A stretch of 64,000 nucleotides of DNA from positions 76,769 to 140,768 of the forward strand of contig CAYRHT010000004.1 in assembly GCA_964424195.1 (NCBI GenBank), given 5' to 3'. The position numbers were made by a program, and so were the translations under genes. Origin of the DNA: an uncultured Gammaproteobacteria bacterium (GTDB lineage: Bacteria > Patescibacteriota > Patescibacteriia > UBA1558 > S5-K13). The notes beneath the pieces are model-generated. The model was not told the origin of the DNA and did no database searches. It was given only the letters and a program-made list of their open reading frames with translations. Below are positions 30,950 to 49,335 of this stretch, in pieces; positions within the stretch are counted from its first letter, which is position 1; each line of letters begins with the position of its first letter.

Positions 30950-31717
30950 ATGGTAGAAGAAAAAGGTCCAAAGATTGAAGAAGAAGTAATTAAAGAAGAT
31001 TCTTTAGTATCTAAAAAAAGTTTTTGGAAATCATTTTTTGGTTTTATCACTGATGGAATAAAGGTTATCTTTTCTTTGTTTTTTATTTCTAATTCAGCAA
31101 AACCACTTACTAGTGAAGAGCTTAAGCCTTTAACACCTAAAACTAGCTTTTGGAAGTCTGCTCTTAGTTTTAGTTTAGAGATCTTAAAGACAGTTATTAT
31201 TTCTCTAGCTATTATTCTGCCAATTAGATATTTTGTAATTCAACCTTTCATGGTTGATGGAGCTTCAATGGAACCTAACTTTTACAATAAACAATACTTA
31301 GTGATTAATGAAATTTCATATCGTTTTCAAGAACCTAGTAGAGGAGAAGTAGTAGTTTTCAAGAATCCTCAAAATACAAAAGAATACTATATTAAAAGAA
31401 TTATTGCTTTACCAGGTGAAACTGTGAAAGTAGAGGGTGGAGAAATATATGTTCAAGAGATTGCTAAAGATGATTTTGTTCAAATTAAAGAGTTTGATTA
31501 TTTACCAGAAGATACTAAGACTTTTGGGAATATTCAGAATTTAGAATTGGGAAATGATGAATATTTTGTTTTAGGAGATAATCGGAAGAATTCTAAGGAT
31601 TCTAGAATATTAGGACCAATAAAGAGAGAGTTAATTACTGGTAAAGTTTGGGTGAGAGGTTTTCCTTTTAAAGAAGCTCAAATATTTAATTTTTCAGAAT
31701 ATGATTACGGATTGTAA
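30950..31717 (+). CDS. lepB: Signal peptidase I with about 100-aa N-terminal extension
   Basis: Catalytic Ser (DGASMEPN) and Lys (YIKRIIALPGE), GDNR box. Confidence 0.85.
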   Translation: MVEEKGPKIEEEVIKEDSLVSKKSFWKSFFGFITDGIKVIFSLFFISNSAKPLTSEELKPLTPKTSFWKSALSFSLEILKTVIISLAIILPIRYFVIQPFMVDGASMEPNFYNKQYLVINEISYRFQEPSRGEVVVFKNPQNTKEYYIKRIIALPGETVKVEGGEIYVQEIAKDDFVQIKEFDYLPEDTKTFGNIQNLELGNDEYFVLGDNRKNSKDSRILGPIKRELITGKVWVRGFPFKEAQIFNFSEYDYGL

Positions 31718-31738
31718 ATTTATAATTTAAATAATATT

Positions 31739-33115
31739 ATGGCCAAAAAGCCAGTTAAAAAAACAACTAAAGCTAAGCCTAAAGCAAAGAGTCCTACTAA
31801 GTCAAAGAAAAGAAAATTTTCTTTGGTTAAGGGTTTTAAAGATATCCTGCCAGTAGATCAAATGTATTGGAATTTTGTAAGAGAGAAGTTTACTAGTATT
31901 TCTCATTCTTATGGTTTTCAAAGAATAGATATTCCAATTGTTGAAGAAACAGGTTTGTTTGCTCGAGGAATTGGAGAAGAAACAGATGTAGTTTCTAAAG
32001 AAATGTTTTCTTTTAAAACTTTAGGAAAAGAAGAAGTAAGTTTAAGACCAGAAGGAACAGCTGGTGTTGTTCGAGCATATATTGAACATGGAATGTTGAA
32101 TAAGCCAAAGCCAGTGAAAGTATACTATACTGGTCCAATGTTTAGATATGATCGTCCTCAAGCTGGTCGTTATCGACAATTCTATCAATTTGGTTTAGAA
32201 GCTATTGGAGATGATGATCCAATTATTGATGCTCAGCTAATATATCTATGTAAACAAATGTATAGTGATATTGGTATTCCAGTCGAGATACAGATTAATA
32301 GTATTGGTTGTAAAAAATGTAGAAAAGCATATATTAAAGTATTAAAGAATTATTTAAAGAAAAATAGAAATAAGCTTTGTACTAATTGTAAGAATCGTTA
32401 TTTGAAAAATCCTCTACGAGTATTAGATTGTAAGGAAAAGAAATGTAAAGAAGTAGTAGTAGATGCTCCGCAGATAGTTGATCACTTATGTGAAGACTGT
32501 AATAATCATTTTGTAAAAGTCTTAGAATATTTAGAAGATGCAGAAACACCTTATGTTTTAAATCCTTTTATTGTTCGAGGTTTAGATTATTACAATAGAA
32601 CAACTTTTGAAGTATTTCCTCAGGGAGATGAAGGAAGTCAAAGTGCTTTGGCTGGAGGAGGTCGTTATGATACTCTAATCAAAACTCTTTGTGGTCAAGA
32701 AACTCCAGCAATTGGTTTGGCTATTGGAATGGAAAGAACCATTGCTAAGCTAAGAGAAAAAGAAGAAACTCCAGGAGTAAAGAAAAACAAAGAAATTGTT
32801 AAAAGTAATCGTTGTGATATTTTTGTGGCTCAGTTAGGAGAACAAGCTCGAAAGAAAGCTTTAGTTCTATTTGAAGACTTAAGAAAAGCTGGATTCAATG
32901 TTGGAGAAAGTCTTTCTAAGTCAGCATTAAAAGCTCAGCTAGAAGCTTCGAATAGAAAGAAGGCTAAGTTGAGTATTATTATTGGTCAAAAGGAAATATT
33001 GGATAAAACAATTTTAATTAGAGATATGGAAAGTGGAAATCAAGAAATTGTTCCGGAAGATCAAATATTAAAAGTATTAAAAAGAAGGTTACATAGTTTA
33101 AATATAAAAAAATAA
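31739..33115 (+). CDS. hisS: Histidine--tRNA ligase with Lys-rich N-terminal tail and Cys-rich insertion
   Basis: Class II motifs (RPEGTAGVVR, YTGPMFRYDRPQAGRYRQFYQ, GGGRYD). Confidence 0.9.
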   Translation: MAKKPVKKTTKAKPKAKSPTKSKKRKFSLVKGFKDILPVDQMYWNFVREKFTSISHSYGFQRIDIPIVEETGLFARGIGEETDVVSKEMFSFKTLGKEEVSLRPEGTAGVVRAYIEHGMLNKPKPVKVYYTGPMFRYDRPQAGRYRQFYQFGLEAIGDDDPIIDAQLIYLCKQMYSDIGIPVEIQINSIGCKKCRKAYIKVLKNYLKKNRNKLCTNCKNRYLKNPLRVLDCKEKKCKEVVVDAPQIVDHLCEDCNNHFVKVLEYLEDAETPYVLNPFIVRGLDYYNRTTFEVFPQGDEGSQSALAGGGRYDTLIKTLCGQETPAIGLAIGMERTIAKLREKEETPGVKKNKEIVKSNRCDIFVAQLGEQARKKALVLFEDLRKAGFNVGESLSKSALKAQLEASNRKKAKLSIIIGQKEILDKTILIRDMESGNQEIVPEDQILKVLKRRLHSLNIKK

Positions 33116-33147
33116 TCAAGTTTAACTTGAAAACATAAAGAAAGGAA

Positions 33148-33375
33148 GTGAATCCAATGGTAGAAGTAAAAAACAAAGGTAATGAACCATTTGAAAGATT
33201 ATTAAGAAGATTTACAAAGAAAATAATTCAAAGTGGTAAGTTGCTTCAAGCTCGAAAAGTTAGATTTAAGAAGAAAGCTAAGACTAAAAGAGAGTATAAA
33301 GAAGCATCTACATATAAAAGAAATATGCAGGATGAGAGAGATTATCTTAGAAAAATTGGTAAACTAGAAGATTAA
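33148..33375 (+). CDS. rpsU: 30S ribosomal protein S21 (GTG at 33148 or more likely ATG at 33157)
   Basis: NEPFERLLRRF..K....G.L...R...F.KK S21 pattern; yqeY-like gene follows. Confidence 0.75.
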   Translation: MNPMVEVKNKGNEPFERLLRRFTKKIIQSGKLLQARKVRFKKKAKTKREYKEASTYKRNMQDERDYLRKIGKLED

Positions 33376-33412
33376 AAACAAGTTCCTCATTTAATTATTA
33401 TAAAGCAAATAA

Positions 33413-33859
33413 ATGAGTTTAAAGGAAACAATTGATAAAGATTTAATTTCAGCACTGAAATCAAGAGATGAAAAGGTGGTGTTAGTTTTAAGGTCGCTGA
33501 AGAATTCTTTGAACAATAAAGAAAAAGAAGAAAAGAAAGATTTAAATGATCAAGAAATAATTAAAATCCTCCTATCAGAATCTAAAAAGCGGAAAGATAG
33601 TATTGAACAATTCAAAAAAGGTGGGCGAGAAGATTTAGTAGTCCAAGAAACTAAAGAAGTAGAAATTATTCAAAAGTATCTTCCAGAAATGAAGTCGGAA
33701 GAAGAGACAAAAAGCATAGTTTGTGATATAATAAAGTCAGAAGACATTGAGAAATCAATGAGTAATTTTGGGCAAGTCATGAAATCTGCTATGCAGAAAT
33801 TAGATGGTCAAGCCGAAGGAAATATAGTTTCCAAAGTTGTTAAAGAAGAATTAAATTAG
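33413..33859 (+). CDS. GatB/YqeY-domain protein
   Basis: YqeY family similarity; conserved rpsU-yqeY neighbourhood. Confidence 0.8.
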   Translation: MSLKETIDKDLISALKSRDEKVVLVLRSLKNSLNNKEKEEKKDLNDQEIIKILLSESKKRKDSIEQFKKGGREDLVVQETKEVEIIQKYLPEMKSEEETKSIVCDIIKSEDIEKSMSNFGQVMKSAMQKLDGQAEGNIVSKVVKEELN

Positions 33860-33888: not shown

Positions 33889-35496
33889 ATGTTTTTGTCA
33901 AAAAACAATAAAGTTAATTTTAAAGTAACTGTTGCCAGTTTAGTTTTGGTATCAACAGTTATTTTTTTTATACCTTTAATTTCATCAGCTCAAATATTAG
34001 TTCCTCAAGTTGCTAATCTAGGAACAGCAGATATTAAAACAATGGCTGGAACACTTATTCAAGTATTCCTAGGTCTTTTAGGTTTAATTGCTTTAGTGAT
34101 AATTATTTATGGTGGATATGTTTGGATGACTTCTGGTGGTAATGAAGAAAAAGTTACTCAAGCTAAGAAAATATTAACATCAGCAGTGATTGGCATTATA
34201 ATTATTATGACTTCCTATGTTATAACTAGTTTTATATTAGAATCTGTTCAAAATAATTCTGGTAATAATGGTTCTAATAATCCGAATGGTAACAACATTA
34301 GTACTGGTTTAGGAAGCGGGGCTTTAGGAGGTGGTTTAATTGAATATCACTATCCAGAAAGAGATGCTGACGATGTTCCTCGAAATACTATGATTATGAT
34401 TACTTTTAAAACACCAATAGCTTTAGAGAGTGTTATTGATGGTAATTTTGGAAATGATGCTACTTGTGATCCTTATATCACAGAAGAAGGAATTGAGTGT
34501 GGAAAGTTAAGTGAAAAGATTCAAATTTTAGATAATGGATTTTTAAGAGATAATGAAATGATTATTGCTGTTTTAACTGCAGATGCTCAAAGAGTTTTAA
34601 TTAAACCAATAGAGGCTCTAGGAAATGAAGATTCAAATACTAATACTACTATTCGTTTAGCTTCTGATATGGAAAGTGTCGAAGGACAGACCTTATTTCC
34701 AGGATTAGAAAATGGTTATAGTTGGCAATTTGAAATTAGTACCTTTCTAGATTTAACTCCTCCAGAAGTTACTTTTGTTTGGCCAGCTCAAGATGATATA
34801 GTAGCTCGAAATGCAATTGTGCAAATTAATTTTTCAGAACCAATAAACATTTTAAGTGTTGATGGTAATATTCTTATTCAAGATGATGATAATTTAACAG
34901 GTGAGCTAAAAATTAGTAATCAATATCGAACTGTAGAATTTTTATCAGATGGAGACTGTGGTGGAGTAAATATCAATTCTTGTGGTGAGAAGGTTTTCTG
35001 TTTACCAGCTACTTCTTTAATTAGAGGAGTTGTTGATAATATTGGTGATGCTTCGGGAAATATTATGTCCGAAGAATATCTTTGGACTTTTAGCACTAGT
35101 AATGAAGTAAATACTACTGCTCCAGAAATTACTAATGTTTCTCCAAGTACAATTAATGTTCAAATCAATCCTAATCCTCAAATTTCAGCAATTTTTGATA
35201 AAGTTATTAGTCCGAGTTCTTTAAATACGGATAATTTTTATATCTATAATAATAGTGCTTGTGATGGAGAAGAATATGAAGATCAAGAAGGAAAGAGTCG
35301 AATCAATAATATTTGTTTGCCATCCTATTCAGTTTTTGCGAACGAAGATAATCATAGATGTAATATTAAATTGTATGCACCATACTTAGATCAATTTTCT
35401 AATTATCGTCCTCGTTTAACTTCAGAAATTAAAGATTCTTATGGAAATTGTTTTAATAGTGCTATTGGACCAGGTGGTAGTGGACAACAAAATTAG
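33889..35496 (+). CDS. Surface protein: signal peptide + two-helix pilin-like N-module, then Ig-like (Big_5-type) repeats (535 aa)
   Basis: N-terminal 115 aa about 80% identical to start of next gene; PPEVT/APEIT Big-like repeat starts. Confidence 0.6.
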   Translation: MFLSKNNKVNFKVTVASLVLVSTVIFFIPLISSAQILVPQVANLGTADIKTMAGTLIQVFLGLLGLIALVIIIYGGYVWMTSGGNEEKVTQAKKILTSAVIGIIIIMTSYVITSFILESVQNNSGNNGSNNPNGNNISTGLGSGALGGGLIEYHYPERDADDVPRNTMIMITFKTPIALESVIDGNFGNDATCDPYITEEGIECGKLSEKIQILDNGFLRDNEMIIAVLTADAQRVLIKPIEALGNEDSNTNTTIRLASDMESVEGQTLFPGLENGYSWQFEISTFLDLTPPEVTFVWPAQDDIVARNAIVQINFSEPINILSVDGNILIQDDDNLTGELKISNQYRTVEFLSDGDCGGVNINSCGEKVFCLPATSLIRGVVDNIGDASGNIMSEEYLWTFSTSNEVNTTAPEITNVSPSTINVQINPNPQISAIFDKVISPSSLNTDNFYIYNNSACDGEEYEDQEGKSRINNICLPSYSVFANEDNHRCNIKLYAPYLDQFSNYRPRLTSEIKDSYGNCFNSAIGPGGSGQQN

Positions 35497-35525
35497 ATTA
35501 ATATATATATTAAATTTTTAAATTA

Positions 35526-38500
35526 ATGATCAAGAAGAAAAAGAATATATTTAGATTATTAACCCTTTCGATGATAGGTATTTTTGCTTTACCTTTAGTT
35601 TCTTTTGCTCAAATATTAGTTCCGCAGGTTGCTGGTTTAGGAACAGCAGATATTAAAACAGTAGCTGGAACACTTATTCAAGTATTCTTAGGTCTCTTAG
35701 GTTTAATTGCTTTAGTAATTGTTTTAGTCGCTGGTTTTAAATGGATGACTTCTGGTGGTAATGAAGAAAAAGTGTCAGAAGCTAAGAAAATGTTAATAGC
35801 AGGAGTAATTGGTCTAGTAATTATTATGGCTTCTTATGTAATAACTAGTTTTATATTAGATAGTATTCAGGGAGCTATAGATGGTCCAGGAGAAGATGAT
35901 CAAACTTGTTCAGTTGGAGTCTGTTATACTTGTAATCGATGTGATTCTGATGGTGATTTAATCTACGACAATACTTGTCCGGGGTGTAATAATTCAATAG
36001 CTGATTTTAATTTTAGAACAAATTGGTATAGTCCTCAGAGCAATAATGTTTCACTTTGTTCAATGATTCAAATTAAGTTTAATGCTAATCTAGATCAAGA
36101 TTATTTTAATGATAATATTAAGCCTGGTTCAACACCAATTGGAACCAGTCAATCTCAAAGTCTCTTTCATTTTTATGAATGTTTAGAATATGCTGATAAT
36201 CAGTGTGTTAAAGTAAGCGATGATTTAGTAGAAAATAGTTCTCAATTTACAATTAATGAAAATATTTTACAATTTAGATTAGGGGAAGATTATGCGGAAG
36301 ATACTTATTATGTTGTTGATTTACCTTTGAAGGGCATTAAGCAAGAAGGAGAGAGTAAGTATTTAAGTAATAATTTAACCTGGACTTTTAAAACTGGAAA
36401 AGAAACAGATATTAATCCACCAACAGTCATTAATGTTTTTCCAGGACCAGAAGGAGAGGTTTGTTTAAATTCTTATATCGAGATTGAATTTTCTGAGGAT
36501 ATGGATTTGAATTCCTTAAAAGACCTAGAAGCTTTCCGTTTATATGAAAATATACCAGATAATTTAAGTGATATAGAGTTTTTACATAGTGTTCAGAATG
36601 ATAAGTTAATTGTTCATCCAGATCGGAATTATAATTTAAATCATAATTACTTCCCAGTATTAAATGGGGATGTTATTAAAGATACTTGTGGTAATTTACT
36701 AGATGGTGATTTTGATGGAAAATCAGAATATGCTCCAACAGATGATTATCCAACTAATGGTCCTAGTGTTGCTTGGAATTTTAAAACTGGAGAAAATGAA
36801 TATTGTCAGCCTCAGATTACTGGAGTAACTTCTGAAACATATTATGATGATGATTCACCTTTAACTATAACTGGTCATTATTTATCAGGCGGAACTACTT
36901 TGGTTTTTAATGATGATCTTGTAATTGATGAAAACAGTAATCTATGTTTAAACGATTCCTATTGGCCAGATGATTTATGTGCTGCTGGAACCTGGGAAGT
37001 CAATGAAATAAATACCTTTATTCCAGCTGATGGAGGAGATAGTTTTGGAGTAATAGCTGAGAAACCTTCTATTAAAATTCAAACAGATCAGGGTTCAACA
37101 GAGGAAAACTTTGCTTTATTAAGTCCAAGAATAGTTAAAATATCACCAGACAGAGGTGGTAAAGGACAATATATTAGTGTTCTAGGTAATAATTTTGATG
37201 AATTTCAGGATATTAATTTTGCAGAATCTAAAATCTTTTTTAGATCAGAAAGTGATGAATATTTAGAAGCTGATTTACCATGTGATAAAGAAGGATGGAA
37301 AAATAATTCTATTGTTATAACTGCACCAGAAGGACTGGAAGTTAATAGTTCTTACAGAATTCAAATTAAAAAAGTTTTAGTAAATGATGTCGAATACTGG
37401 AGTAATTTAGGAGATTATTATTATAATGAAGAAGATGCTGGTCCAGGTTTATGTTCTATTAACAAAGAGACTATTGAATATGAAGACGAGTTTATTTTAG
37501 ACGGTTTTAAATTAGGAGATTCTAATATAGAGAGAAGAGTTGTTTTAGGAGATGACTATAATTCTACTTCAGCACCAACAATTAATTGGGGAGATCCAGT
37601 AGATGGACAAGATACTAGAGTTGTAGCTCAAGCGCCTAATCTAGCTAGTGCTGATGATATTGGTGTTCGAGTAGCAGTAGAAATAGATGGTGAATTAAGA
37701 TTTAGTAATTATTTAAATGTAGATGTTCTGTCTGATTTTTCAGATCAATTTTATATAAGTTATATTTCTCCAGAAGTAGCTTCAGTAGGTGAGTATATTA
37801 CTATCTATGGTTCAGGATTTGGTAATAGTCAAGGAGATCAAACAGTTAGATTTTATAACAATACATTCACTTGGCCAGAAGGAGATTTTAATTTTCCAGA
37901 AGCTTGCTCTAGTGTTTACTGGCAGGATGATCAGATCATTGTTAAAGTACCAGAAATATTTACTACTCTTCCTTTTGAGTCTCAGATTAAAGTTGTTAAT
38001 GATCAAATTGAAACTGCTGCAGTTGCAGTAGAAATTGATGATGAAGATCCTGCTCCTTCAATTTGTAGTGTTAATCCAGAACTTGGAACTTTGGGAGATG
38101 AATTAGAAATTATTGGGGAATATTTAAATGATGTTGATTGGCTTACCTTTGCTTATGAAACAGATGATGCTTTGGATATTAGACCAAATAGTACTAATAA
38201 AGGTGTAGTTGAAGTTAGTGTTCCAGAAACTAATACTGGTTTAATCTCTGCTCATAATACTAGCGGTTATGGAAATACTTGGAATTTTGAATATCAAAAA
38301 GTAGAAGAAGGTCCAGCAGAAGAATGGGATTTCTATGGTTGGGAGTTTACTACTTGTACTCAATGTGAGAGTCCGCGAGTCAGAGTTCAATCTTGTGATG
38401 CTGAACTTAAGTTTTCACCTTCACCTGCTCCAGGGAATAAATTTGTACCTTTAGGTTCTAATGTTTATATCGAATTTGAATATCAAGATGAAGATCCTGC

Positions 38501-41500
38501 GGAAATGAATATTAGGAGTTATCAGAATAATTTTAATATTTATGAATGTTCTGATGGAGACGCACCTCTAGAGTTAGAATATTGTAATGAGCTTAAATCT
38601 TTTAATTCTGTAGAAGCGAATACTTTTTTAGAAATAAATACTTTAGATTTTCAAGCAGGATATTGGTATCGAGGAGAGTTATTAGACGAGATTAAAGATA
38701 TAGAAGGTTCTAGTTTAAATGAATATTCTTGGTATTTTAGAATAGATCCTTATGGGGCAATATGTGAACCAGATACTTTAAATATTGAACCTAATAATTT
38801 TGTAAAGACCTATGTAGCTAATGATACTCTTACTTATACAGGATTGTTAGTTGATAGTGAAAATTGTTATGTTTGTGCTAGTGATGGTTATGATTATGAT
38901 TGGGAGAGTAGTGATACAAGTTTAGCTACTATTGCTAATAATAATACTTCAGAAACTGATGTAACTTTAAATGATTATTATAATTTTGGTAATTTAGAAA
39001 TTAGAGCTACTTCTACTTTAGATACTTTAGAGTTAGCTGATGATACAAATTTATACATCGTAGCTAATTGTTCTATTTATGAAGACTCAACAACTTGTCA
39101 TGATAGTGGAGAATGTTGTTGGGATGGAGAAACTTGTGGTTCAGATATGAGTGTTTGTGATGAAGATTGTTTAGTCTATACAGAAGTAGATACTTGTGAA
39201 GCTGATACTTGTTGTTGGGCTAACGAAGAATGTCTCTTTGAAAATAATCCAGATTGTGGTTTACCAATAGATTGTTCTATTTATGAAGACTCAAAAACCT
39301 GTCATGAGAGCGGTGAGTGTTGTTGGGATAGTGGTGATATTTACTCAACTACACCTGAAGGAGGTATTTGTAGTGATGATATGACAGCTTGTGATGAAGA
39401 TTGTTTAGTATATAAAGAAGTAGAGACTTGTGAAGCTGATGCTTGTTGTTGGGCTAATGAAGAGTGTTTATTTGAGAATAATTCAGCTTGTGATTTTGAG
39501 ATAGAAGATCCGGAAGTTGATCCAGTTCTAGATGATTTAATGATCTTATCAAATTATCCAAGAAATGAATCTTCTAATATTTGTCCTAATACTTTGATTA
39601 AAGTGGAATTTGATTTACCAGTAGATGCTGATAGCTTAGAGGGTAATATTGAGTTATTAGAGAGTTCAAGTTTTGGTTCTGCGGCAAATATTGATTTTAC
39701 CTATTCTTCTTACAGAAGATATGATGGAACTTCCGTTTTAGAAATAATTCCTCAAGGGATTTTAGATTCAACAACAATATATCAAGTTAATCTATTAGAT
39801 GGTGAAAATGGTATTAAATCTAATGAGGGTGGGGGATTATCTTGTGATAGTTCTTCTAATGGTAGTATTAATAATGGAAGATGTGATTGGAGTTTTACTA
39901 CAGCTGCTAATGTTTGTGATTTAAGTTATGTGAAAATAGTTAATCCAGTAGATAATTATTATGAATTTAATACTCCAATGATTGGAGAAACCTTTATTGC
40001 TGAAGCTAGAACAATTTCTGGAGATCCAATAGTATCAGTAGCTGGAGTCTATGATTGGCAATGGAAGTGGGAATCTTTTGATGAATCATTAGTGACTTTA
40101 GCAGGAGATAATTCTGATTCTGTTTTAGTTATGCCAGCTAATAATAATGGTACAACAATAGTTGAAGTTAATGCTCTTCAAATTCCATCAGAATCAATTT
40201 GTAATGATTATAGTCAGGCAAGTTGTGAAATTAATTCTTGTTGTTGGGTAGATGGTGTTTGTAGTGCAAATCTAGAAACTTGTGAAGAAAATTTATTAAG
40301 TTTTGCTGGTAAATCTGGTTACAAGGGAATAACTTTGAGTGATGAAGTAGAAGTTGAATTATTTATGTGTGAAAATTCTTGGGCATTTGAAGATAGAAAT
40401 TTTAATTTTAAGTTTAAATATTGTCGAGATGGAGGACTACCTTATTTAGCAGATTCTTTAGAAAATGGTTTGATTATAAATGATTTTGAAGCGGTAGAGG
40501 GAGAAGATTCTTTATTAAGAGAATATATATTTAAATATATACCTGATCCTAATCAACAGGCTAATTCAGGAAATTATAATTTAGTAGATGCTAAATCAAA
40601 TAATAGTCTTATGTCAGAAGTAGGAATTTCTGGTTTAGCAGATAATCAATTAGGATTTAAATTCTTGTCTAAAATATTTAGAGGAGCTGTTTCTTATTTT
40701 TCTAATAATAGAGTTTTGGCAGCCACTCCATCAGGTCAAGGAATTTTACCAAACGATATCTTGGGTTTAAGAATATATCAGAACAAGAATCATTATTCTC
40801 CTATTGCTTGGTATTCTTCTACTAATGTAGTTAATTTTAAAGGTTCACCAAATCCTATTTCGATAAATGGTTATCAAGGTCTTAAAGATGGTCGAACCAC
40901 TTATGTTAATGCTGCTAACAAAGTAGATAATAGTATTTATACAAACATTTCCTTAATTTCTCATAATCAAGATGCTATCTTAGAAACTGTAAATATATTT
41001 AATCAGTTAGTAGATAATTGGAAGTTTAATATTAATATGCGTCCTGATTCTAAATCTCAACTAATTGAAGATGTTCAAAGATGGGAAGATTTAAGAAGAA
41101 TGGAAAGTAATTTAGATAATTATGCTGCTCAGAATAAATATTGTGCTTATGTTTCTGATCCTGTGGCTGGAGCTTGTGGTACCTATCCAATTCAATATTA
41201 TCATTTTGATTTAAATGGTAACAAGACTATTGATTCAGCAGAATGCTATAACGTTTCTGCAACAAAATCATGTAGTAGTGACTCTGAATGTCAGAATAAT
41301 GATATGGGTTATGATCAGTGTGTAGGTGTTTATCCAGAGCTTAATGAAGGAACTTATGTTCAAGGAATATCAACTTCTGCTTGGCCTTCTTGGAATTCTA
41401 CTTTGGCTAATCAAATGGGAACCTCTTTACCAATTGATCCTGTAAATGAATTTAATTCTTGTAGTGCTTCTTATGATCAGCAAACTTGTTGGGATGTTGA

Positions 41501-44500
41501 AGGACAGACATTCTCTTGTCCAAGAGATTCACATATTTATTATTATCAAGCAAGTAATAGTAATAATATAGATAAAAGAGCTTTAAGTTTTAATTTATAC
41601 AGTTTATTTAATTTTAATACTAAGAATGATAGTTATTGGAATGGTAGTGGTATAAATAGGACTTTTAATTCAGCAATTAATAGTTTTAATAGTCTTAACT
41701 TAAATAATTATGATGTTTGTAATGATCAAGTTTCAGCTACTTGTGGAAACGGTATTAAGGAATTAGGAGAAGAGTGTGAGTACGGTCAAACATTATCTTT
41801 GTGCAGTAACATTACCCATAGAGGATATTATAATCCTACTGAAGTTGGTTGTCGTTATGATTGTCAGTGGCCAGCTCATATCAATGATCCAGAAGATTGT
41901 TTAAGTTGTGGAGATGGTGTATTTAGTCCAGAATATGGAGAAGTTTGTGAACTTGGTCAATCAGAGATGTTCTGTGAAGACAGTTGGAATCCTCAAGAAG
42001 TTTCTTGTGTTGCTTGTCAGTGGCCAGATTTAGATGAATGTGAATATTGTGGAGATGGTGTTTGTGATATTGATCTTGATAATAATGGTGTTCCTTTTGA
42101 AGGAAGTGATCCAGGAGAAGATAATTTTTGTTATCAAGATTGTGAAGATGGATGTGGTGATGGTATTTGTGATCATGAGTTTGAAGATGCTTATTCTTGC
42201 TATATTGATTGTGGTGATTGTGGTGATGAAATAGTATCTGGCTGGGAGGAATGCGATTTGAATATTGGTGAAGAATGTTTAGCTGGTGATTATGGTGGAC
42301 ATTATCAATGCATAAATAGTGGAGATGATGAATGTACTTGGTCTGATGAATGTACTCCAGATGGTAATTGTGGTGACGGAGTTGTAAATGGTAATGAATT
42401 ATGTGAAATTAATGATATTGGTCCACAGTGTGAGAGAAATACGGATGCTTATTGGGGTAATCGGGAATGTATTGTTACTACTGAAACTCAACCATATAAT
42501 TCAGAAGATTGTTTTTGGCATCTTAATACAGAAGAGGATAATATTTGGTGTCCAACAGATGAATCATGTGGTGACGGAGCTATTAATGGTCTTGAAGAAT
42601 GTGACGATGGAAATAATGCAAATGAAGATGGTTGTGATTCTAATTGTTTATTAGAATGTGGTAATGGTGAGATTGAGCCTTTAGAAGAATGTGACGATGG
42701 AAATAATGTAAATGAAGATGGTTGTGATTCTAATTGTTTGTTTGAATGTGGTAATAGTCAACATGAATATTGGGAAGTTTGTGACGAAGGATCTTATAAT
42801 AACGATGATTGCTCTCCTTATTATCAATTTGAACAATCTGGACATACTTATTGTCAGACTGATTGTTTGTCTGAGTGTACGGTACAAGGTAATTATTGTG
42901 GTGATGGAATTGTTCAATCTTCTTATGAGGACTGTGATACTCCTGGTTTATTAGAAATTTATACAGAGAAGAAGATGGAGATAGTATTTATTTTTGATAT
43001 GACTTCTAGTATGGGTGATGCTGCAACTGAATTATGTGGTGCTTTAGGGTCTGTAGCGTCAGATTTATATGAAAGAAAAGAAAACAATGAAATACAAGAT
43101 TATAAAATTACAGTTATGACATTGGGTGATTTAGAAGATGGAATTTTGAATAATAATCCTAATGATAACATTATTAGGACTGATGGTAATAATCCTTTGG
43201 TGTTTAATAATTTAGTTACTAATTGTGGAGTTTATCAAAATCTTAATAATTCATCTTATCCAGAATATGATAATATATCATATGCGAGTTTTTGGGATAA
43301 TGATAATAATAATTTAAATATTAATTTACCATCAGATGATAGTGAATGGTTTAATAATCTTTGTGGCCCAAATGGTCAAGGAGATACACAAGAGCATTGG
43401 GGATATGCAGTTGAAAAAGTAGCAACAAATTATAATTGGGAAAATGATTATCAAAGAATAATTATACCAGTTAGTGATGAGGCTGCTTATTGTGGAAATG
43501 ATTTTAATGATTATGATGATTATGATGAATCGACTTCTAATGGTAATGCATTGGATGGTTGGAATTTTACGGAAATATTAGTAGATACTGTTAACGCTTG
43601 TAATAATTCTGATCAACAAATTTATTTAAATCCCGTATTAATAAATACTGAACTTGCTGGTTTGTATTATAGCGGTCATCCTAGTTATAATGTAGCACAG
43701 GCAATTGCTGATGATACCGGAGGTGTTTTTAATAATACTACAGATAATTGGGCAGAAAGTATTATAAGTCTTGTTGATCACCTTTTCTGTGATGGTAATG
43801 GTGATGGTTATATGGATTGTTTTTTTAGTGGTGATATTCAAGATGTATGTACTTCCTGGACTTATTCAGCATGGAGTGAGTGTATAAATGGTCAACAAAC
43901 AAGAAGTATTCTTTCTTCTTCTCCAGATGACTGTATTAATGGAAATTCTATTTTAACTCAAAATTGTGACGTGTGCGTTTCCTGGACTTATTCAGCATGG
44001 AGTGAGTGTATAAATGGTCAACAAACAAGAGAGGTTTTAACTTCTTATCCATATAATTGTATTGATGGAGATCCTGTTTTAACTCAAAATTGTGCCGGAG
44101 AGGACGAATGTGCAAATAACTATGTTACAAATGGTAATTTTTCATCTGGTTTTAATTGTTGGAATTCAAGTACAAATTTTGAGAATATGAATACTGATAA
44201 TAATATATTTGAAGTAAATATTATTGGTGGAGGGAGTAATAATATGTATTTTTCATATGATAATTTTCTTTTTATAGAAGGTGAAACATATAAATTATCT
44301 TTTGATTATGATACAACATCTGATCTTGTGCTTGGAGTTAGTAGTGTTTCTGGTTCTTCTATGCCTATTGGTGTAATGAGTTCTTATTGTACTGTTGATA
44401 GTTGTGAGTGGATTTTTACAGCATCTTCTCAGCAATTCCTATTTTCATTCCCACCAAATGTAAATAATCAGACAATGCATTTAGATAATATTGAGATTGT

Positions 44501-44516
44501 CCATATACCCGATTAA
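35526..44516 (+). CDS. Giant (2,996 aa) multi-domain surface protein: pilin-like N-module, Ig-like repeats, Cys-rich repeats, VWA, TSP1-like repeats, CBM-like tail
   Basis: Uninterrupted 8,991-nt ORF; CG[DN]G..EECDDGN.NEDGCDSNC repeats; MIDAS FDMTSSM; W-S-x-W-S-E-C repeats. Confidence 0.75.
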   Translation: MIKKKKNIFRLLTLSMIGIFALPLVSFAQILVPQVAGLGTADIKTVAGTLIQVFLGLLGLIALVIVLVAGFKWMTSGGNEEKVSEAKKMLIAGVIGLVIIMASYVITSFILDSIQGAIDGPGEDDQTCSVGVCYTCNRCDSDGDLIYDNTCPGCNNSIADFNFRTNWYSPQSNNVSLCSMIQIKFNANLDQDYFNDNIKPGSTPIGTSQSQSLFHFYECLEYADNQCVKVSDDLVENSSQFTINENILQFRLGEDYAEDTYYVVDLPLKGIKQEGESKYLSNNLTWTFKTGKETDINPPTVINVFPGPEGEVCLNSYIEIEFSEDMDLNSLKDLEAFRLYENIPDNLSDIEFLHSVQNDKLIVHPDRNYNLNHNYFPVLNGDVIKDTCGNLLDGDFDGKSEYAPTDDYPTNGPSVAWNFKTGENEYCQPQITGVTSETYYDDDSPLTITGHYLSGGTTLVFNDDLVIDENSNLCLNDSYWPDDLCAAGTWEVNEINTFIPADGGDSFGVIAEKPSIKIQTDQGSTEENFALLSPRIVKISPDRGGKGQYISVLGNNFDEFQDINFAESKIFFRSESDEYLEADLPCDKEGWKNNSIVITAPEGLEVNSSYRIQIKKVLVNDVEYWSNLGDYYYNEEDAGPGLCSINKETIEYEDEFILDGFKLGDSNIERRVVLGDDYNSTSAPTINWGDPVDGQDTRVVAQAPNLASADDIGVRVAVEIDGELRFSNYLNVDVLSDFSDQFYISYISPEVASVGEYITIYGSGFGNSQGDQTVRFYNNTFTWPEGDFNFPEACSSVYWQDDQIIVKVPEIFTTLPFESQIKVVNDQIETAAVAVEIDDEDPAPSICSVNPELGTLGDELEIIGEYLNDVDWLTFAYETDDALDIRPNSTNKGVVEVSVPETNTGLISAHNTSGYGNTWNFEYQKVEEGPAEEWDFYGWEFTTCTQCESPRVRVQSCDAELKFSPSPAPGNKFVPLGSNVYIEFEYQDEDPAEMNIRSYQNNFNIYECSDGDAPLELEYCNELKSFNSVEANTFLEINTLDFQAGYWYRGELLDEIKDIEGSSLNEYSWYFRIDPYGAICEPDTLNIEPNNFVKTYVANDTLTYTGLLVDSENCYVCASDGYDYDWESSDTSLATIANNNTSETDVTLNDYYNFGNLEIRATSTLDTLELADDTNLYIVANCSIYEDSTTCHDSGECCWDGETCGSDMSVCDEDCLVYTEVDTCEADTCCWANEECLFENNPDCGLPIDCSIYEDSKTCHESGECCWDSGDIYSTTPEGGICSDDMTACDEDCLVYKEVETCEADACCWANEECLFENNSACDFEIEDPEVDPVLDDLMILSNYPRNESSNICPNTLIKVEFDLPVDADSLEGNIELLESSSFGSAANIDFTYSSYRRYDGTSVLEIIPQGILDSTTIYQVNLLDGENGIKSNEGGGLSCDSSSNGSINNGRCDWSFTTAANVCDLSYVKIVNPVDNYYEFNTPMIGETFIAEARTISGDPIVSVAGVYDWQWKWESFDESLVTLAGDNSDSVLVMPANNNGTTIVEVNALQIPSESICNDYSQASCEINSCCWVDGVCSANLETCEENLLSFAGKSGYKGITLSDEVEVELFMCENSWAFEDRNFNFKFKYCRDGGLPYLADSLENGLIINDFEAVEGEDSLLREYIFKYIPDPNQQANSGNYNLVDAKSNNSLMSEVGISGLADNQLGFKFLSKIFRGAVSYFSNNRVLAATPSGQGILPNDILGLRIYQNKNHYSPIAWYSSTNVVNFKGSPNPISINGYQGLKDGRTTYVNAANKVDNSIYTNISLISHNQDAILETVNIFNQLVDNWKFNINMRPDSKSQLIEDVQRWEDLRRMESNLDNYAAQNKYCAYVSDPVAGACGTYPIQYYHFDLNGNKTIDSAECYNVSATKSCSSDSECQNNDMGYDQCVGVYPELNEGTYVQGISTSAWPSWNSTLANQMGTSLPIDPVNEFNSCSASYDQQTCWDVEGQTFSCPRDSHIYYYQASNSNNIDKRALSFNLYSLFNFNTKNDSYWNGSGINRTFNSAINSFNSLNLNNYDVCNDQVSATCGNGIKELGEECEYGQTLSLCSNITHRGYYNPTEVGCRYDCQWPAHINDPEDCLSCGDGVFSPEYGEVCELGQSEMFCEDSWNPQEVSCVACQWPDLDECEYCGDGVCDIDLDNNGVPFEGSDPGEDNFCYQDCEDGCGDGICDHEFEDAYSCYIDCGDCGDEIVSGWEECDLNIGEECLAGDYGGHYQCINSGDDECTWSDECTPDGNCGDGVVNGNELCEINDIGPQCERNTDAYWGNRECIVTTETQPYNSEDCFWHLNTEEDNIWCPTDESCGDGAINGLEECDDGNNANEDGCDSNCLLECGNGEIEPLEECDDGNNVNEDGCDSNCLFECGNSQHEYWEVCDEGSYNNDDCSPYYQFEQSGHTYCQTDCLSECTVQGNYCGDGIVQSSYEDCDTPGLLEIYTEKKMEIVFIFDMTSSMGDAATELCGALGSVASDLYERKENNEIQDYKITVMTLGDLEDGILNNNPNDNIIRTDGNNPLVFNNLVTNCGVYQNLNNSSYPEYDNISYASFWDNDNNNLNINLPSDDSEWFNNLCGPNGQGDTQEHWGYAVEKVATNYNWENDYQRIIIPVSDEAAYCGNDFNDYDDYDESTSNGNALDGWNFTEILVDTVNACNNSDQQIYLNPVLINTELAGLYYSGHPSYNVAQAIADDTGGVFNNTTDNWAESIISLVDHLFCDGNGDGYMDCFFSGDIQDVCTSWTYSAWSECINGQQTRSILSSSPDDCINGNSILTQNCDVCVSWTYSAWSECINGQQTREVLTSYPYNCIDGDPVLTQNCAGEDECANNYVTNGNFSSGFNCWNSSTNFENMNTDNNIFEVNIIGGGSNNMYFSYDNFLFIEGETYKLSFDYDTTSDLVLGVSSVSGSSMPIGVMSSYCTVDSCEWIFTASSQQFLFSFPPNVNNQTMHLDNIEIVHIPD

Positions 44517-44553
44517 TTTGAATAATAATATTTATATTCTTATTTTTTTATGT

Positions 44554-44583
44554 TATAATTAAATCACTAATCAATTAGTGATT
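44554..44583 (+). promoter_or_regulatory. Extended -10 promoter element followed by a 10-2-10 inverted repeat
   Basis: TGtTATAAT (44551-44559) then aatcactaat-ca-attagtgatt (44562-44583) overlapping the putative start. Confidence 0.4.
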
Positions 44584-45780
44584 TTTATGTTTGAAGATCA
44601 AGACTTACAAAATAAAAAAGAGGATAATACTTTGAACAATAAAGTAGTTCAAAAGGATAATCAAGCTCAGACATCTTATCAAGATAAATTACGTGATAAC
44701 AAAATTGCGGAAGATATTTTTGAAGATGCAGATAAGATACCTGCTGTTGATCAGAAGGTTATAAAGTCAGGTAATGTTCAAGATCCTAGCATCTCTCCAG
44801 TACAGCCTTTAACAGACTATCAAGATCTAGTACAAGAGAGTCAAAATTTAAAAAGTGATAAAATTAAGCCACGGTATTTTATGATTGGTTTAGCAGTTAT
44901 TTTGATTATAATTTCTTGGTTTGGATTTTGGATTTATAAACAATTCTTTACTGGAACTAGAGAAACTGGAGAGGTAATATTAAATACAGAGTCAGAAGAG
45001 ATTAATTTAGATAGCATTTCTGATGAAAATGACAAAATAATAGAAGAAGGTATTAATGTAAATTCTAGTGCTATTTCTAATGATATTGATGGAGATGGTC
45101 TAAGCAATGAAGAGGAAGAAATATTAGGAACAGATCTTAAGAGTTCAGATACAGATAATGATGGTTTATCTGATCGAGAGGAAGTAAAAATATATCATAC
45201 TGATCCGCTTAATGAAGATTCTGATTCAGATACTTATTTAGATGGAGAAGAAGTTGAGAATGGTTACAATCCTTTAGGTAGTGGTAAGTTATTTGATTTT
45301 AGTTTAATCACCGATGAATCTTCTGAAGAAATAGAAACAACTATTAAAGAATTAATAAAGCCAAATATTGATACTAGTGATTGGTCTAGTTTTGGAACAA
45401 GAGTTTTTAATTTGAGTTTTCAGTATCCATTTGATTGGAGTATTAATGAACTGGAGGATAAAGTTGTTATCAGTCCCCTGGATGATCAAATTAGTGATTA
45501 TATAGAGATTGAAGTAAGAGATAATATATTTCAACTTGATTTAGTGGACTGGTTAAGTACTCAAGAAGATTATCCAGACTTTACTCAAGATCAATTAAAA
45601 ATAAATGAAGATCTTGGCTTGGTTGTTAATAGTGATAATCCAGATTGGAAGTTTATAAGTTCAATGTTTATTAGTCGAGGAAGTAAAGTGTATAATTTTA
45701 ATCTATTTAGTGAAAATGATACTAGTGATGGTTTTAATATATTTCAAGCAGTTGTTTTATTAACTGAATTTGGAATTTAA
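44578..45780 (+). CDS. Bitopic membrane protein with TSP3-like Asp-rich repeats (start GTG 44578 or ATG 44587)
   Basis: One TM helix; DIDGDGLSNEEE / DTDNDGLSDREE / DSDSDTYLDGEE repeats. Confidence 0.55.
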   Translation: MIFMFEDQDLQNKKEDNTLNNKVVQKDNQAQTSYQDKLRDNKIAEDIFEDADKIPAVDQKVIKSGNVQDPSISPVQPLTDYQDLVQESQNLKSDKIKPRYFMIGLAVILIIISWFGFWIYKQFFTGTRETGEVILNTESEEINLDSISDENDKIIEEGINVNSSAISNDIDGDGLSNEEEEILGTDLKSSDTDNDGLSDREEVKIYHTDPLNEDSDSDTYLDGEEVENGYNPLGSGKLFDFSLITDESSEEIETTIKELIKPNIDTSDWSSFGTRVFNLSFQYPFDWSINELEDKVVISPLDDQISDYIEIEVRDNIFQLDLVDWLSTQEDYPDFTQDQLKINEDLGLVVNSDNPDWKFISSMFISRGSKVYNFNLFSENDTSDGFNIFQAVVLLTEFGI

Positions 45781-45805
45781 TAAATTTATATGAATTTTAA
45801 ATAGT

Positions 45806-47197
45806 ATGTTTAATGAAAAAGCTCCGGCAACAAATAATAATCAAGAAGGGGAAAGACTTATTGTAAATGAATCTAATGAGGTTTATGATCGAGCTTTTGA
45901 TTCTCCTAGTTCTAATCAAAAAGAACAGAAGAATGATTCTTTACAACAAGTTCCAAATACTCAAGAAGTTTCTTTAGAAAAAAGAGAATTGAAGATAAAA
46001 GATTCTGACATTCACCATATGCCAGATAAATTTCTGAAACCAGAAGGAAAACCCAAAAAAGAGAAAAATATTTTTATAATCCTAGGAATTATTTTAGGAG
46101 TGATAGTGATCGGAATAGTTGCTGCTTTTGCTTTCTTTGCTTTACAGGGAGGAGAGGTGCCCGAGAATAATGAAGTTTTAAATCTGAATGAGAATATTAC
46201 TCCTAGTGAAGAAATGGAAGCTATTGATTCTGAGGAAATGAACTTAGTGACAGCCCAGGGAAGAGATGAAAAAAGAATAAAAGATATTTTAGATATTAGA
46301 AGTGCTTTATCATTTTATTATCAAGACATTGAAAAATATCCTTACCAATTATCTAGTTTAAAAAAATATTTACCAGAAGTTCCTAAGAATCCCGAACCAA
46401 GAGGGGAAGATTATTATTACAAAGTAGATGATGACGGAAGTGTTTATTCTCTAACTTTTGTATTAGAAGAGGGGGTTGAACTTGATAATTTAGTTTTATC
46501 AAGTGGAAAATATGAATTAACTCCTAACTTTGGTATTAGTGCTTATATTGATATTTCCGAGCCAGAAGTAGAACCAGAAATAGTAGAACCAGAACCAGAG
46601 AATGATCCAGGGTCAGGACTATTACCAATACCAAAAATAGGTAATGATAATGATAATGATGGTTTAACTAATATAGAAGAGCTATTATTTGGTACAAAGT
46701 TTGGTCTACCAGATAGTGATTTTGATGGATACATAGATAGTGAAGAATTAATAGCCTTATATGATCCTTTGACAGACGGAGCTATGTTAATTGATAATAG
46801 TGAGATAGTAAGCGTTTATGATAATGAAATATTTAATTATTCTGTTTTATATCCAGCTAAATGGTTAGTTGAAGAAAAGACAGTTGATTTTAAAGAAGTT
46901 ATTTTTTATGATGATGAGAATGGAGACTTCTTCAAGATTCAAATAATTGATAATCCTCAAGGTTTATCAATTCAGGAATGGTATTCATATTTTTCTCCTG
47001 GTTCTAGTCTTAGTAATTTAGAGTATTTTGAAAATGGTAATTTAGTAGGAGTTAAAACAAAAGATGGACTTAATATTTATATATCTAGTGAAAATCAAGT
47101 TTATATAATTTCATATATTATAATTAATACTGAAGAATTAAATTATTCTAAAACTTTTGAAATGTTTAGTAATAGTTTTAAAATGATTGAGTCATGA
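45806..47197 (+). CDS. Bitopic membrane protein with GspG/type-IV-pilin-like globular signature and Asp-rich repeat; paralog of previous
   Basis: TM helix; GRDEKRIKDILDIRSALSFYYQDIEKYP...PRGEDYYYKVDDDGSVYSLTF; NDNDNDGLTNIEE. Confidence 0.55.
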   Translation: MFNEKAPATNNNQEGERLIVNESNEVYDRAFDSPSSNQKEQKNDSLQQVPNTQEVSLEKRELKIKDSDIHHMPDKFLKPEGKPKKEKNIFIILGIILGVIVIGIVAAFAFFALQGGEVPENNEVLNLNENITPSEEMEAIDSEEMNLVTAQGRDEKRIKDILDIRSALSFYYQDIEKYPYQLSSLKKYLPEVPKNPEPRGEDYYYKVDDDGSVYSLTFVLEEGVELDNLVLSSGKYELTPNFGISAYIDISEPEVEPEIVEPEPENDPGSGLLPIPKIGNDNDNDGLTNIEELLFGTKFGLPDSDFDGYIDSEELIALYDPLTDGAMLIDNSEIVSVYDNEIFNYSVLYPAKWLVEEKTVDFKEVIFYDDENGDFFKIQIIDNPQGLSIQEWYSYFSPGSSLSNLEYFENGNLVGVKTKDGLNIYISSENQVYIISYIIINTEELNYSKTFEMFSNSFKMIES

Positions 47198-47616
47198 AAA
47201 GTAATATAAATATTTTAATTAGAAGTTTTAAACTTAAAACTTGGTTTGAAAAAGTAGTTCAAAGATTAGAGAAAGTAGAGAAAATAAAATCAGATCAAAT
47301 GTCAGTAGTTATTGTAGCTGATCAGAGAATTAAAACTTTAAACAGAAAGTATCGGAAAAAGAATAAAGTTACAGATGTCTTAAGTTTTGTAGAGAGTGAT
47401 ATTAATCAGAAGTATAAATTATCAAATGATAGTTATTTAGGAGAGATATTTATTAACTTTAGACAAGCTGAGAGACAAGCCAAAGATCTGAAGACGGAAA
47501 TGTTAAATCTATTAGTACATGGATATTTACATTTACGAGGCTATACTCATGATAATGATCGAGAGATGAAAAGAATAAAAGAATTGACCGAGAAGATAAT
47601 TAAAAAGATTAAATAA
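47194..47616 (+). CDS. ybeY: rRNA maturation endoribonuclease YbeY
   Basis: HGYLHLRGYTHD zinc-binding motif. Confidence 0.85.
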   Translation: MKSNINILIRSFKLKTWFEKVVQRLEKVEKIKSDQMSVVIVADQRIKTLNRKYRKKNKVTDVLSFVESDINQKYKLSNDSYLGEIFINFRQAERQAKDLKTEMLNLLVHGYLHLRGYTHDNDREMKRIKELTEKIIKKIK

Positions 47617-47620
47617 TAAA

Positions 47621-48001
47621 ATGAATCTCTTTAGTGTTAAAAGATTTTTAAGAAGTTTGAAGTGTGCTAGTAGAGGATTAGTTTCAGTCTACAAAACAGA
47701 ACAGAATTTTCGTTTTCAAATATTAATTTCTATAGTTGTTTTGATTGCTATGTTGGGTTTTGGAGTTACTAGAAAAGAAGCAGTTTTATTAATTCTAATG
47801 ATAGCTTTTGTTTTAGTGATGGAGATTATTAATTCTGTTTTTGAAAAGATTTCAGACATGATGAAACCACGAATTCATGTTTATGCTAAGCTGATTAAAG
47901 ATATTATGTCTGGTGCAGTTTTAATTACAGCTTTAGTATCATTAGCAATTGGATTAATAATTTTCATACCTTATTTTATAAATTTATTCAATAATTTTTA
48001 A
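47621..48001 (+). CDS. dgkA: Diacylglycerol/undecaprenol kinase DgkA family
   Basis: 3-TM, ASRGL...EQNFR...E.INS.FE motifs; follows ybeY. Confidence 0.8.
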   Translation: MNLFSVKRFLRSLKCASRGLVSVYKTEQNFRFQILISIVVLIAMLGFGVTRKEAVLLILMIAFVLVMEIINSVFEKISDMMKPRIHVYAKLIKDIMSGAVLITALVSLAIGLIIFIPYFINLFNNF

Positions 48002-48072
48002 TTTAACAATTCATTGTTTTTAGGCTATAATTAAGGCAATGAAATTAATATTTTCTTAATTTTTATAATATT

Positions 48073-49311: not shown

Positions 49312-49335
49312 ATTATTAATATTAAAATTTCAAAT

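Follow-up and report, generated by a model that had tools for sequence, protein, structure and literature searches.

Patescibacteria depend on contact with other cells, and their attachment has been attributed mainly to type IV pili (T4P), with the role of their type IV secretion systems (T4SS) and VirB2-like pilins given as unknown (PMC12102498, PMC12857230, PMC11665869). VirB2-like pilins (PF18895/PF04956) have been reported in 1,948 Patescibacteria assemblies, in arrays of 2-11 genes, again with no known role for the T4SS (PMC12102498, PMC10633639, PMC12857230, PMC11665869), and in Ca. Southlakia epibionticum such an array has been found to be essential (PMC10633639). In a different pilin superfamily, the type IV pilins of Streptococcus sanguinis include two modular ones, of which PilB carries a vWA module and PilC a lectin module (Raynaud et al., 2021, PMC8179133), and examples from Falkowbacteria and Magasanikbacteria have already been noted for T4P (PMC8179133). 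Here, we describe four adjacent genes, A to D, at positions 33889-47197 of a 64-kb stretch of patescibacterial DNA (hereafter the window; contig CAYRHT010000004.1, positions 76,769 to 140,768, assembly GCA_964424195.1). The first two encode large proteins that begin with one and the same VirB2-type pilin module.

The products of A and B resemble the known patescibacterial PF18895 pilins (the Ca. Southlakia array and the arrays of Quinonero-Coronel et al., 2025) in family, in helix-loop-helix layout and in an LGLLG...WMTSGGNEEKV core. However, those pilins are stand-alone proteins of about 100-200 amino acids (aa), often encoded near virB4, whereas A and B are 535 and 2,996 aa long and are encoded at a separate locus with partner genes of their own. 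The census of PMC12102498, which required a hidden Markov model (HMM) coverage above 50% measured on the profile, would probably count them as ordinary pilins in a two-gene array.

Two large proteins share a VirB2-type pilin module

All four open reading frames (ORFs) lie on the + strand. Gene A (33889..35496) encodes the 535-aa protein, in which a predicted signal peptide (aa 1-34, cleavage at SSA↓Q) is followed by a helical hairpin (aa ~35-118), a G/N/S-rich linker and Big_5 domains. The 2,996-aa giant is encoded by gene B (35526..44516). The original prediction for this DNA, made without database searches, had noted that the two proteins are about 80% identical in their N-terminal modules, and indeed their first ~115 aa align without gaps, with 70 of 91 core residues identical and 83.5% identity over 285 nucleotides (nt) at the DNA level. 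Both modules score above the cut-off of the Pfam family PF18895 (T4SS_pilin, the VirB2-like pilin family of Patescibacteria), with 41.8 bits for A and 37.1 bits for B against 26.6, over profile positions 4-71 of 71; the earlier guess of a VirB2/TrbC-type family was therefore a good one. Matches to TrbC/VirB2 (PF04956) are full-length but sub-threshold (17.4 bits for A and 21.4 bits for B, cut-off 27.9). The same module scores 29-31 bits against a cut-off of 40 with NCBIfam NF045849, the pilin-like conjugal transfer protein Mbov_0395 of a Mycoplasma integrative and conjugative element (positions 9-79 of 80). When the module was aligned with its nearest relatives, all 38 sequences matched PF18895, and 17 of the 38 matched TrbC at E <= 0.01 (best 6.8e-9). 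Judged by these profile scores, the tie to TrbC/VirB2 holds at the family level only.

The conserved core, LGLLG-helix-G(G/F)xWMTSGGNEEKVxxAKKxL-helix, is common to the fusions and to free-standing pilins, and a signal-peptidase site of the form xA↓Q is conserved in the alignment (SSA↓Q in A and SFA↓Q in B). The proposed layout of signal peptide, helix, charged loop and helix agrees with the alignment, with hydropathy and with an AlphaFold2 (AF2) model. The model consists of helices at residues 8-40 (signal peptide and N-segment), 49-80 and 86-124 and forms a helical hairpin with a pLDDT of 84-96 over residues 51-120. In hydropathy profiles of A and B we see three segments, corresponding to the signal peptide, helix 1 and helix 2, and none further along. 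Relatives found with the module alone are mostly 106-219 aa long, and a few of them are fragments of A-like proteins. A six-frame phmmer search revealed no third copy of the module in the window, and a profile search of PDB sequences with it returned nothing relevant. Neither protein matches a type IV pilin or N-methylation-motif family in Pfam at E <= 0.01. We also found no C-terminal LPXTG or type I secretion system (T1SS)/RTX signal in A or B, which end in ...GPGGSGQQN and ...NIEIVHIPD, with no C-terminal hydrophobic segment and no RTX family in Pfam.

The gene calls are well founded. Identical copies of A occur on at least 24 contigs and identical copies of B (P0037) on 15, drawn from JGI, ENA, NCBI and GEM. 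The locus is identical in a 952,420-bp JGI contig and an independent ENA assembly, both of which give a B of 2,996 aa, and B orthologues of 2.9-3.2 thousand aa (kaa) are colinear with it over at least 2,400 aa. B does contain internal repeats, and an origin of the gene in collapsed repeats or a frameshift was considered; given identical proteins in many independent assemblies and colinear orthologues, a chimeric giant ORF created by assembly or annotation is of negligible probability and was rejected.

The two pilin modules evolve in concert

The close similarity of genes A and B at the DNA level is confined to a homogenised tract of ~300 nt within the pilin module, at 33952..34251 (+) in gene A and 35571..35870 (+) in gene B. 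Per 30-nt window, the two genes agree at 18-27 positions inside the tract (21-27 in all windows but one) versus 7-10 outside it, and the edges are sharp. At 54 of the 70 conserved residues the codon is identical, compared with 37.1 expected from codon usage.

A similar pattern is seen across genomes. In the six genomes first compared, the A and B modules of one genome are 62-87% identical, versus 44-68% between orthologues. Extending the comparison to 42 genomes gave a within-genome A-B median of 61% (range 48-89), set against between-genome medians of 45% for A-A, 46% for B-B and 45% for A-B. In 23 of the 42 genomes, A finds its best match in the B module of the same genome, which ranks among the top three in 34. 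The pilin module thus carries no A- or B-specific signature. As A modules are nearer to the B of their own genome than to the A of other genomes, a single divergence of A and B before the species split does not explain the pattern. It is what repeated gene conversion, or else strong co-selection, would leave behind when confined to the pilin module. The payloads are orthologous between genomes; for example, one relative of A (P0093) is 61% identical to it over its full length.

Free-standing pilins are also encoded on the same contig as the window. Eight short PF18895 genes (116-194 aa) lie in tandem ~300 kb from the cassette (L003:8897-12720; Ga0233431_1000003, ~196.9-200.7 kb), with no VirB4-like gene within 10 kb of the array. 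The third gene of this array (arr3; P0011, 131 aa) encodes the free-standing pilin that is nearest to the modules of A and B, at 49-56% identity. There was no signal of three-way co-evolution among A, B and arr3; arr3 is equally similar to the modules of a related genome.

A conserved stalk ends in a variable tip

Beyond the pilin module, Pfam detects Big_5 domains, which are immunoglobulin (Ig)-like, in both A and B, and TIG domains in B. The Ig-like repeats proposed for the 535-aa protein are therefore present; that the two payloads differ completely, as was also stated, is wrong, because A and B remain weakly homologous up to about aa 324 and 331, respectively. Most relatives of A align with it only to about residue 380.

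The conserved scaffold of B (35862..41735, +; aa ~113-2070) comprises a Cys knot, Big_5 domains (aa ~295-395 and 1340-1459), TIG domains (aa ~536-665 and 744-830) and a duplicated Cys-rich module (aa 1178-1327). Over residues 1-2070, B aligns colinearly with every orthologue, at 36-67% identity. The two copies of the Cys-rich module (aa 1178-1249 and 1246-1327) are 62% identical, a tandem duplication that had been noticed in the original prediction. At the distal end of the scaffold is a domain that we call mid (40323..41729, +; aa 1600-2068). It is conserved more widely than any other payload domain in the family, and part of it has a Mog1/PsbP/LpqN-like alpha/beta fold. By eye, its motif KRWEDLR...YP.L..GT...WPSW...LP.DP.N...Y.Y resembles a type II secretion system (T2SS)-G pseudopilin. 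The scaffold is followed by a Cys-rich acidic repeat region (41706..42968, +; aa ~2061-2481; DUF4215/myxo_disulf_rpt) found in the closer orthologues only. PF13948 and TIGR02232 (44.5 bits, cut-off 20.8) both recognize Myxococcus-type Cys repeats in B, as had been read from the sequence.

The remaining 520 aa of B form a lineage-specific tip (42951..44513, +; aa 2476-2996), for which we detected no homologue in the 55 related giants retrieved. It consists of an orphan region (aa 2476-2770) with a VWA-like beta1-MIDAS (metal ion-dependent adhesion site) motif only, a pair of repeats (aa 2775-2857) and a weak galactose-binding-like tail. The adhesive domains previously proposed for this region could not be verified. 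A VWA domain could not be confirmed, as there is no Pfam match at E <= 1 and no PDB sequence match, and an hhalign comparison of the tip with the VWA segments of six related giants gave a probability of 45% (E 2e-4) over only 43 columns around IVFIFDMTSSM, the beta1-MIDAS stretch. Those relatives that have a Pfam-detectable VWA domain carry it at the equivalent distal C-terminal position. The two WSxWSEC repeats (nt 43848-44096, +) are a genuine 41-aa repeat, C.SWTYSAWSECINGQQTR, in two copies, but their identification as thrombospondin type 1 is not confirmed (TSP_1 PF00090, E = 0.1, 13.3 bits versus a cut-off of 21.6). The proposed tail resembling a carbohydrate-binding module (CBM) likewise lacks confirmation (GalBD_like, E = 0.01).

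The 41-aa Cys/Trp repeat (C.SWTYSAWSECINGQQTR...C) is also found in tandem in 46 other proteins of 300-830 aa, the named ones being from the candidate phyla radiation (CPR), which carry domains as varied as beta-helix, peptidoglycan-binding and trypsin. Of the proposed tip modules, this repeat alone was verified as recurrent. Several of these matches are annotated as PF28492, a family that did not appear in the Pfam scans reported here, whose profile set may not include it.

Bitopic partners C and D share a domain with the giant

Genes C (44587..45780, +; 397 aa) and D (45806..47197, +; 463 aa) each encode a bitopic protein with one transmembrane (TM) helix and two DxDxDG repeats 22 residues apart. 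For gene C, the listed ORF begins with a GTG at 44578 (44578-45780). This start is probably wrong, and the ATG at 44587 (MFEDQ...), which gives the length also called by JGI, is preferred because all orthologues begin with MF(E/D)D.... In C, the TM helix is encoded at nt 44878-44934 and the two repeats, of thrombospondin type 3 (TSP3), at nt 45082-45183, followed by a C-terminal domain shared with D and with the mid domain of B. In D, the TM helix (nt 46070-46126) is followed by a weak T2SS-G-like stretch (nt 46262-46423), the DxDxDG repeats (nt 46646-46747) and the shared domain (nt ~46808-47191).

The two proteins are paralogous (BLAST E 9e-10; hhalign 97%). C exceeds the cut-off of TSP3_bac PF18884 (54.2 bits, cut-off 25), and D is sub-threshold (E 0.5), although all orthologues of D keep the repeats. 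The earlier description of two paralogous single-TM proteins with TSP3-like DxDxDG repeats is thus upheld, with the Pfam cut-off passed by C only. With hhalign, the C-terminal domains of C and D are homologous (97%, E 5e-11), and that of D also matches aa 1742-1835 of B (93%, E 2.6e-7). By these profile comparisons, one Mog1/PsbP-like domain is common to B, C and D.

The predicted cytoplasmic tails of the bitopic proteins contain short conserved motifs. That of C (44587-44877) begins with MF(E/D)D and includes (D/E)D(I/M)F(x)(D/E)T(D/E), which is ..EDIFEDAD in the window, and that of D (45806-46069) has [IV][HY]x[MI]P(D/E)(K/R)F, here IHHMPDKF. Such motifs resemble peptides for docking to a partner in the cytoplasm; ftsA is found two genes downstream.

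The cassette has a fixed genomic address

In all eight giants inspected, including that of the window, the cassette occupies the same place, lepB-hisS-(small ORF)-yqeY-[A][B][C][D]-ybeY-dgkA-ftsA-ftsZ, and this synteny persists in giants with as little as 23-25% identity. The inspected loci contain, after yqeY, a pilin and Big_5 protein of 535-831 aa, a pilin giant, one or two TSP3 bitopic proteins and a protein of 325-500 aa, and then ybeY. In the window, the upstream flank (30950..33859, +) comprises lepB, encoding signal peptidase I (30950-31717), hisS (31739-33115), a 72-aa ORF (33157-33375) and yqeY (33413-33859), and the downstream flank (47194..50986, +) comprises ybeY, dgkA, ftsA, ftsZ and nrdR. 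The signal peptidase gene is a constant neighbour of the cassette. The 72-aa ORF is conserved in position in all relatives; the copy in the window has no Pfam match at E <= 0.001, and the ORF between hisS and yqeY in one relative (L009) matches ribosomal protein S21.

The gaps A-B, B-C, C-D and D-ybeY are 29, 70, 25 and -4 nt, the stop codon of D overlapping the ybeY start. From lepB to ftsZ, the sole terminator-like site on the + strand, by a scan for consensus matches only, is at 36651-36670, inside gene B. Tight spacing and the lack of a + strand terminator-like site between these genes fit co-transcription with the neighbours. A promoter scan gave no usable signal, as sites in this AT-rich DNA were barely more numerous than in shuffled sequence.

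A homologue search with B recovered another 55 giants, which are 1.9-4.6 kaa long. PF18895 together with Big_5 and TIG is present in 48 of them; some also have DUF4215, VWA, LamG, FN3 or Kazal domains. Their source names include Komeili-, Uhr-, Kerfeld- and Magasanikbacteria and the "Parcubacteria group". For the A-type protein, there are 654 relatives (representatives of 50%-identity clusters) at E <= 1e-30, and about 143 of the best 150 align from an N-terminal pilin module of their own, most of these proteins being 530-1,000 aa in length. With so many relatives of A, and pilin-headed giants in many Patescibacteria, the supposed rarity of this combination of modules is wrong at the database level.

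We also scanned contigs from one genome per species with the most conserved block of the giant and kept the best 80 loci, the best match being 56% identical; the genome of the window is itself outside these 80. In this species-representative collection, 211 stretches encode the mid domain, and at least 40 of the 78 retrieved loci display the gene order [PIL+A][PIL-B][mid][C][D]. Many genomes, including several under the title Falkowbacteria, have two genes in place of the giant, one for a pilin-headed protein of ~1,900 aa and, directly after it, one for a mid-domain protein of 1,000-1,600 aa (for example L009:17709-21509); the two are fused into one gene in the lineage of the window. At a few loci (L035, L037, L042 and L068), a mid-domain protein paired with a TSP3 bitopic protein recurs without a pilin gene nearby, so that mid-domain and C-type proteins would seem to make up a separate unit. 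We regard the four-gene module as vertically inherited in a large clade of Patescibacteria (Komeili-, Falkow-, Magasanik-, Uhr- and Kerfeldbacteria). The record titles of many contigs that bear it read "uncultured Gammaproteobacteria bacterium" (binchicken/SRP co-assemblies), and Helarchaeota (L084) and Saccharimonadales (L080) each appear in one title. Judging by gene content and synteny, such titles are probably placeholders or reflect mis-binned contigs.

No T4SS or T4P assembly genes were found in the 64-kb window or in the flanks of the relatives examined. Other genes in the window for proteins of the envelope or exterior include, just downstream of ftsZ and nrdR, one for a probably extracellular 1,147-aa protein with a papain-family C1 peptidase, PEGA and several FG-GAP repeats (51509-54952, +). 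On the opposite strand (19520-24517, -), an AcrB-type resistance-nodulation-division (RND) transporter (1,095 aa) is encoded with an HlyD-like membrane-fusion protein (565 aa), in an otherwise small, monoderm-type genome.

A proposed membrane-rooted surface fibre and its alternatives

Pilin and Ig-like modules are common to A and B, while another module links B with C and D, from which we infer that the four products work together. On balance, and with modest confidence, we favour the reading that this locus is a four-gene module for a surface fibre or contact apparatus, anchored by pilin hairpins, with an Ig-like stalk and a variable tip. A surface or attachment role is plausible from predicted topology and domain content. 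A and B would be exported by the Sec system, after which signal peptidase I would cut them at the conserved xA↓Q. The VirB2-like two-helix hairpin would hold them in the cytoplasmic membrane with both termini outside and the KK-rich loop inside, an orientation that would place the whole C-terminal payload in the extracellular space. This payload would form a long stalk of Ig-like (Big_5/TIG) and Cys-knot domains, conserved between species, and the species-specific tip at its end would be the probable ligand-binding part. C and D may be calcium-binding, membrane-spanning partners, which probably dock or organise the fibre at the envelope via the shared Mog1/PsbP-like domain. We prefer a root in the membrane because the cassette is autonomous and never lies beside T4SS genes in the loci examined.

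Several points weigh against such a fibre. A plain anchor has no obvious need of a pilin-specific loop motif or of matched modules in A and B, and the matched modules and loop fit co-assembly into a polymer at least as well. The adhesive tip domains (VWA, TSP-1 and CBM) could not be verified, and the constant ybeY-dgkA-ftsA-ftsZ linkage could instead indicate an envelope or division role. The word pilin is itself an unproven label for PF18895, as we found no publication imaging a pilus made of such proteins. In a Foldseek search of the PDB with the N-module, the best E was 0.66, and the 50 matches listed were generic helical hairpins with no conjugative pilin among them; because a helical hairpin is so generic a fold, this comparison, like the profile search of PDB sequences, weighs neither for nor against membership of the pilins.

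Co-assembly into a polymer is what would be expected if A and B were modular minor pilins, which is the main alternative but in our view a less likely one. A T4SS would extract the VirB2-like module and polymerise it with free pilins, so that the Ig-like stalk and tip would stand on a filament, either at its end or as sparse decorations, and the pilus would be a device for displaying adhesins, as with PilB and PilC for T4P. The modules of A and B are full PF18895 members with the same loop motif as free pilins, eight of which are encoded on the same 952-kb contig. They are also matched to each other within each genome, as expected of subunits that pack together or share one machine, although gene conversion between adjacent paralogous tracts can be neutral, and arr3, despite its 49-56% identity to the two modules, resembles the A and B modules of a related genome just as closely as those of its own. 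Essential pilin arrays and relaxase-less T4SS have been reported in Patescibacteria (PMC10633639, PMC12102498), and adhesive modules on pilins are established for T4P (PMC8179133). However, the cassette never adjoins T4SS genes or pilin arrays in the loci examined (the array here is ~300 kb away), it has conserved partners of its own in C and D, and a payload of 2,900 aa is without precedent on a conjugative-type pilus.

More speculatively, and only as a tentative proposal, the relaxase-less T4SS might serve at least in part to assemble from these modular VirB2-type pilins a pilus that shows giant species-specific adhesins (A and B) for host-cell contact, with C and D coupling it to an actin-like ATPase (FtsA or PilM, for example) via the IHxMP(D/E)(K/R)F and DDIF motifs. 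If a T4SS does build such an adhesin-display pilus, it would be the first conjugative-type pilus to serve as an adhesin scaffold and would provide a concrete function for a T4SS that is essential in one tested species.

We think it unlikely that the cassette is a structural part of the envelope, such as a surface coat or a scaffold of the pole or septum, tied to growth and division through links from the C and D tails to cytoskeletal proteins, for example FtsA. The invariant ybeY-dgkA-ftsA-ftsZ linkage, the co-directional, operon-like array in which the D stop overlaps the ybeY start, the conserved tail motifs (IHxMP(D/E)(K/R)F in D and MFxD...DDIF in C) and the conservation of the scaffold across the whole clade are all in keeping with this role, but synteny may merely reflect insertion into an ancestral yqeY...ybeY-dgkA operon, and a species-specific, rapidly replaced tip better fits recognition of an external partner than a housekeeping scaffold.

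It is more improbable still that the pilin-like module is an export or targeting signal only, with the payload cut off after secretion to act as a soluble exoprotein or a toxin-like effector. Helix 2 is directly followed by a flexible G/N/S-rich linker in A and by a Cys knot in B, and many relatives encode the distal half of the giant, from the mid domain onward, separately, without a hydrophobic helix in L009, so that this half can function with no covalent pilin anchor. Against release, the cassette has neither a conserved protease site nor a conserved protease gene, searches of A and B revealed no domain of an enzyme or toxin, and stalks of Ig repeats are typical of retained adhesins.

Implications and comparison with known systems

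The modular VirB2-type pilin class, the fixed four-gene cassette, the concerted evolution of its pilin modules and the conserved-stalk, variable-tip design all appear to be new. A literature search, the coverage of which is incomplete so that it is weak evidence, found no publication on VirB2-type pilins fused to large payloads; nor did we find the pilin-like anchors that the original prediction had taken to be already described on large CPR surface proteins. Species-specific tips on conserved, paired and vertically inherited proteins are concrete candidates for host recognition in organisms that depend on contact, and the cassette makes a link between this pilin family and adhesion testable. 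Its fixed address near ftsA and ftsZ, together with the stalk and tip design, makes it easy to locate and compare in studies of host range. The fusions also call for caution in HMM censuses that treat every PF18895 match as a small pilus subunit.

Among described surface proteins, the ectodomain of C matches the repeat region of the Myxococcus TSP3 proteins CglD and MtsD (NF033765, E 1.8e-7; NF047639, E 1e-3), which have calcium-binding repeats and are named for gliding-motility adhesion and cell-cell cohesion. The likeness is limited to the repeat region (29 bits versus a cut-off of 400), and C and D are small and bitopic with a different C-terminal domain. B, likely one of the largest proteins of its proteome, recalls giant Ig-repeat adhesins such as SiiE and the 7,651-aa adhesin of Mobiluncus in having a very long Ig-like stalk that presents distal binding modules. 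However, adhesins of that type are anchored by T1SS retention or by sortase and LPXTG, whereas A and B would be anchored by an N-terminal pilin hairpin.

TrbC/VirB2 (PF04956) and Mbov_0395 (NF045849) resemble A and B in having a long signal peptide and two hydrophobic helices, and the predicted mature N-terminal Gln of A and B resembles VirB2 processing. In contrast to those pilins, A and B score below the curated cut-offs and are not in a context of mating-pair-formation genes. Head-to-tail cyclisation, as in TrbC/VirB2, would be incompatible with their C-terminal fusions unless the payload were removed.

In architecture, A and B are most like the modular type IV pilins, in which a small N-terminal pilin module likewise bears functional modules at the C-terminus (here Big_5, TIG, DUF4215 and mid). 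In type IV pilins, the signal peptide is of class III, there is a single N-terminal helix and assembly depends on the T4P machinery, whereas A and B combine a Sec-type signal peptide with a two-helix VirB2-type hairpin, and their payloads are several times larger than the most extreme case in that survey, a protein of 860 residues (PMC8179133).

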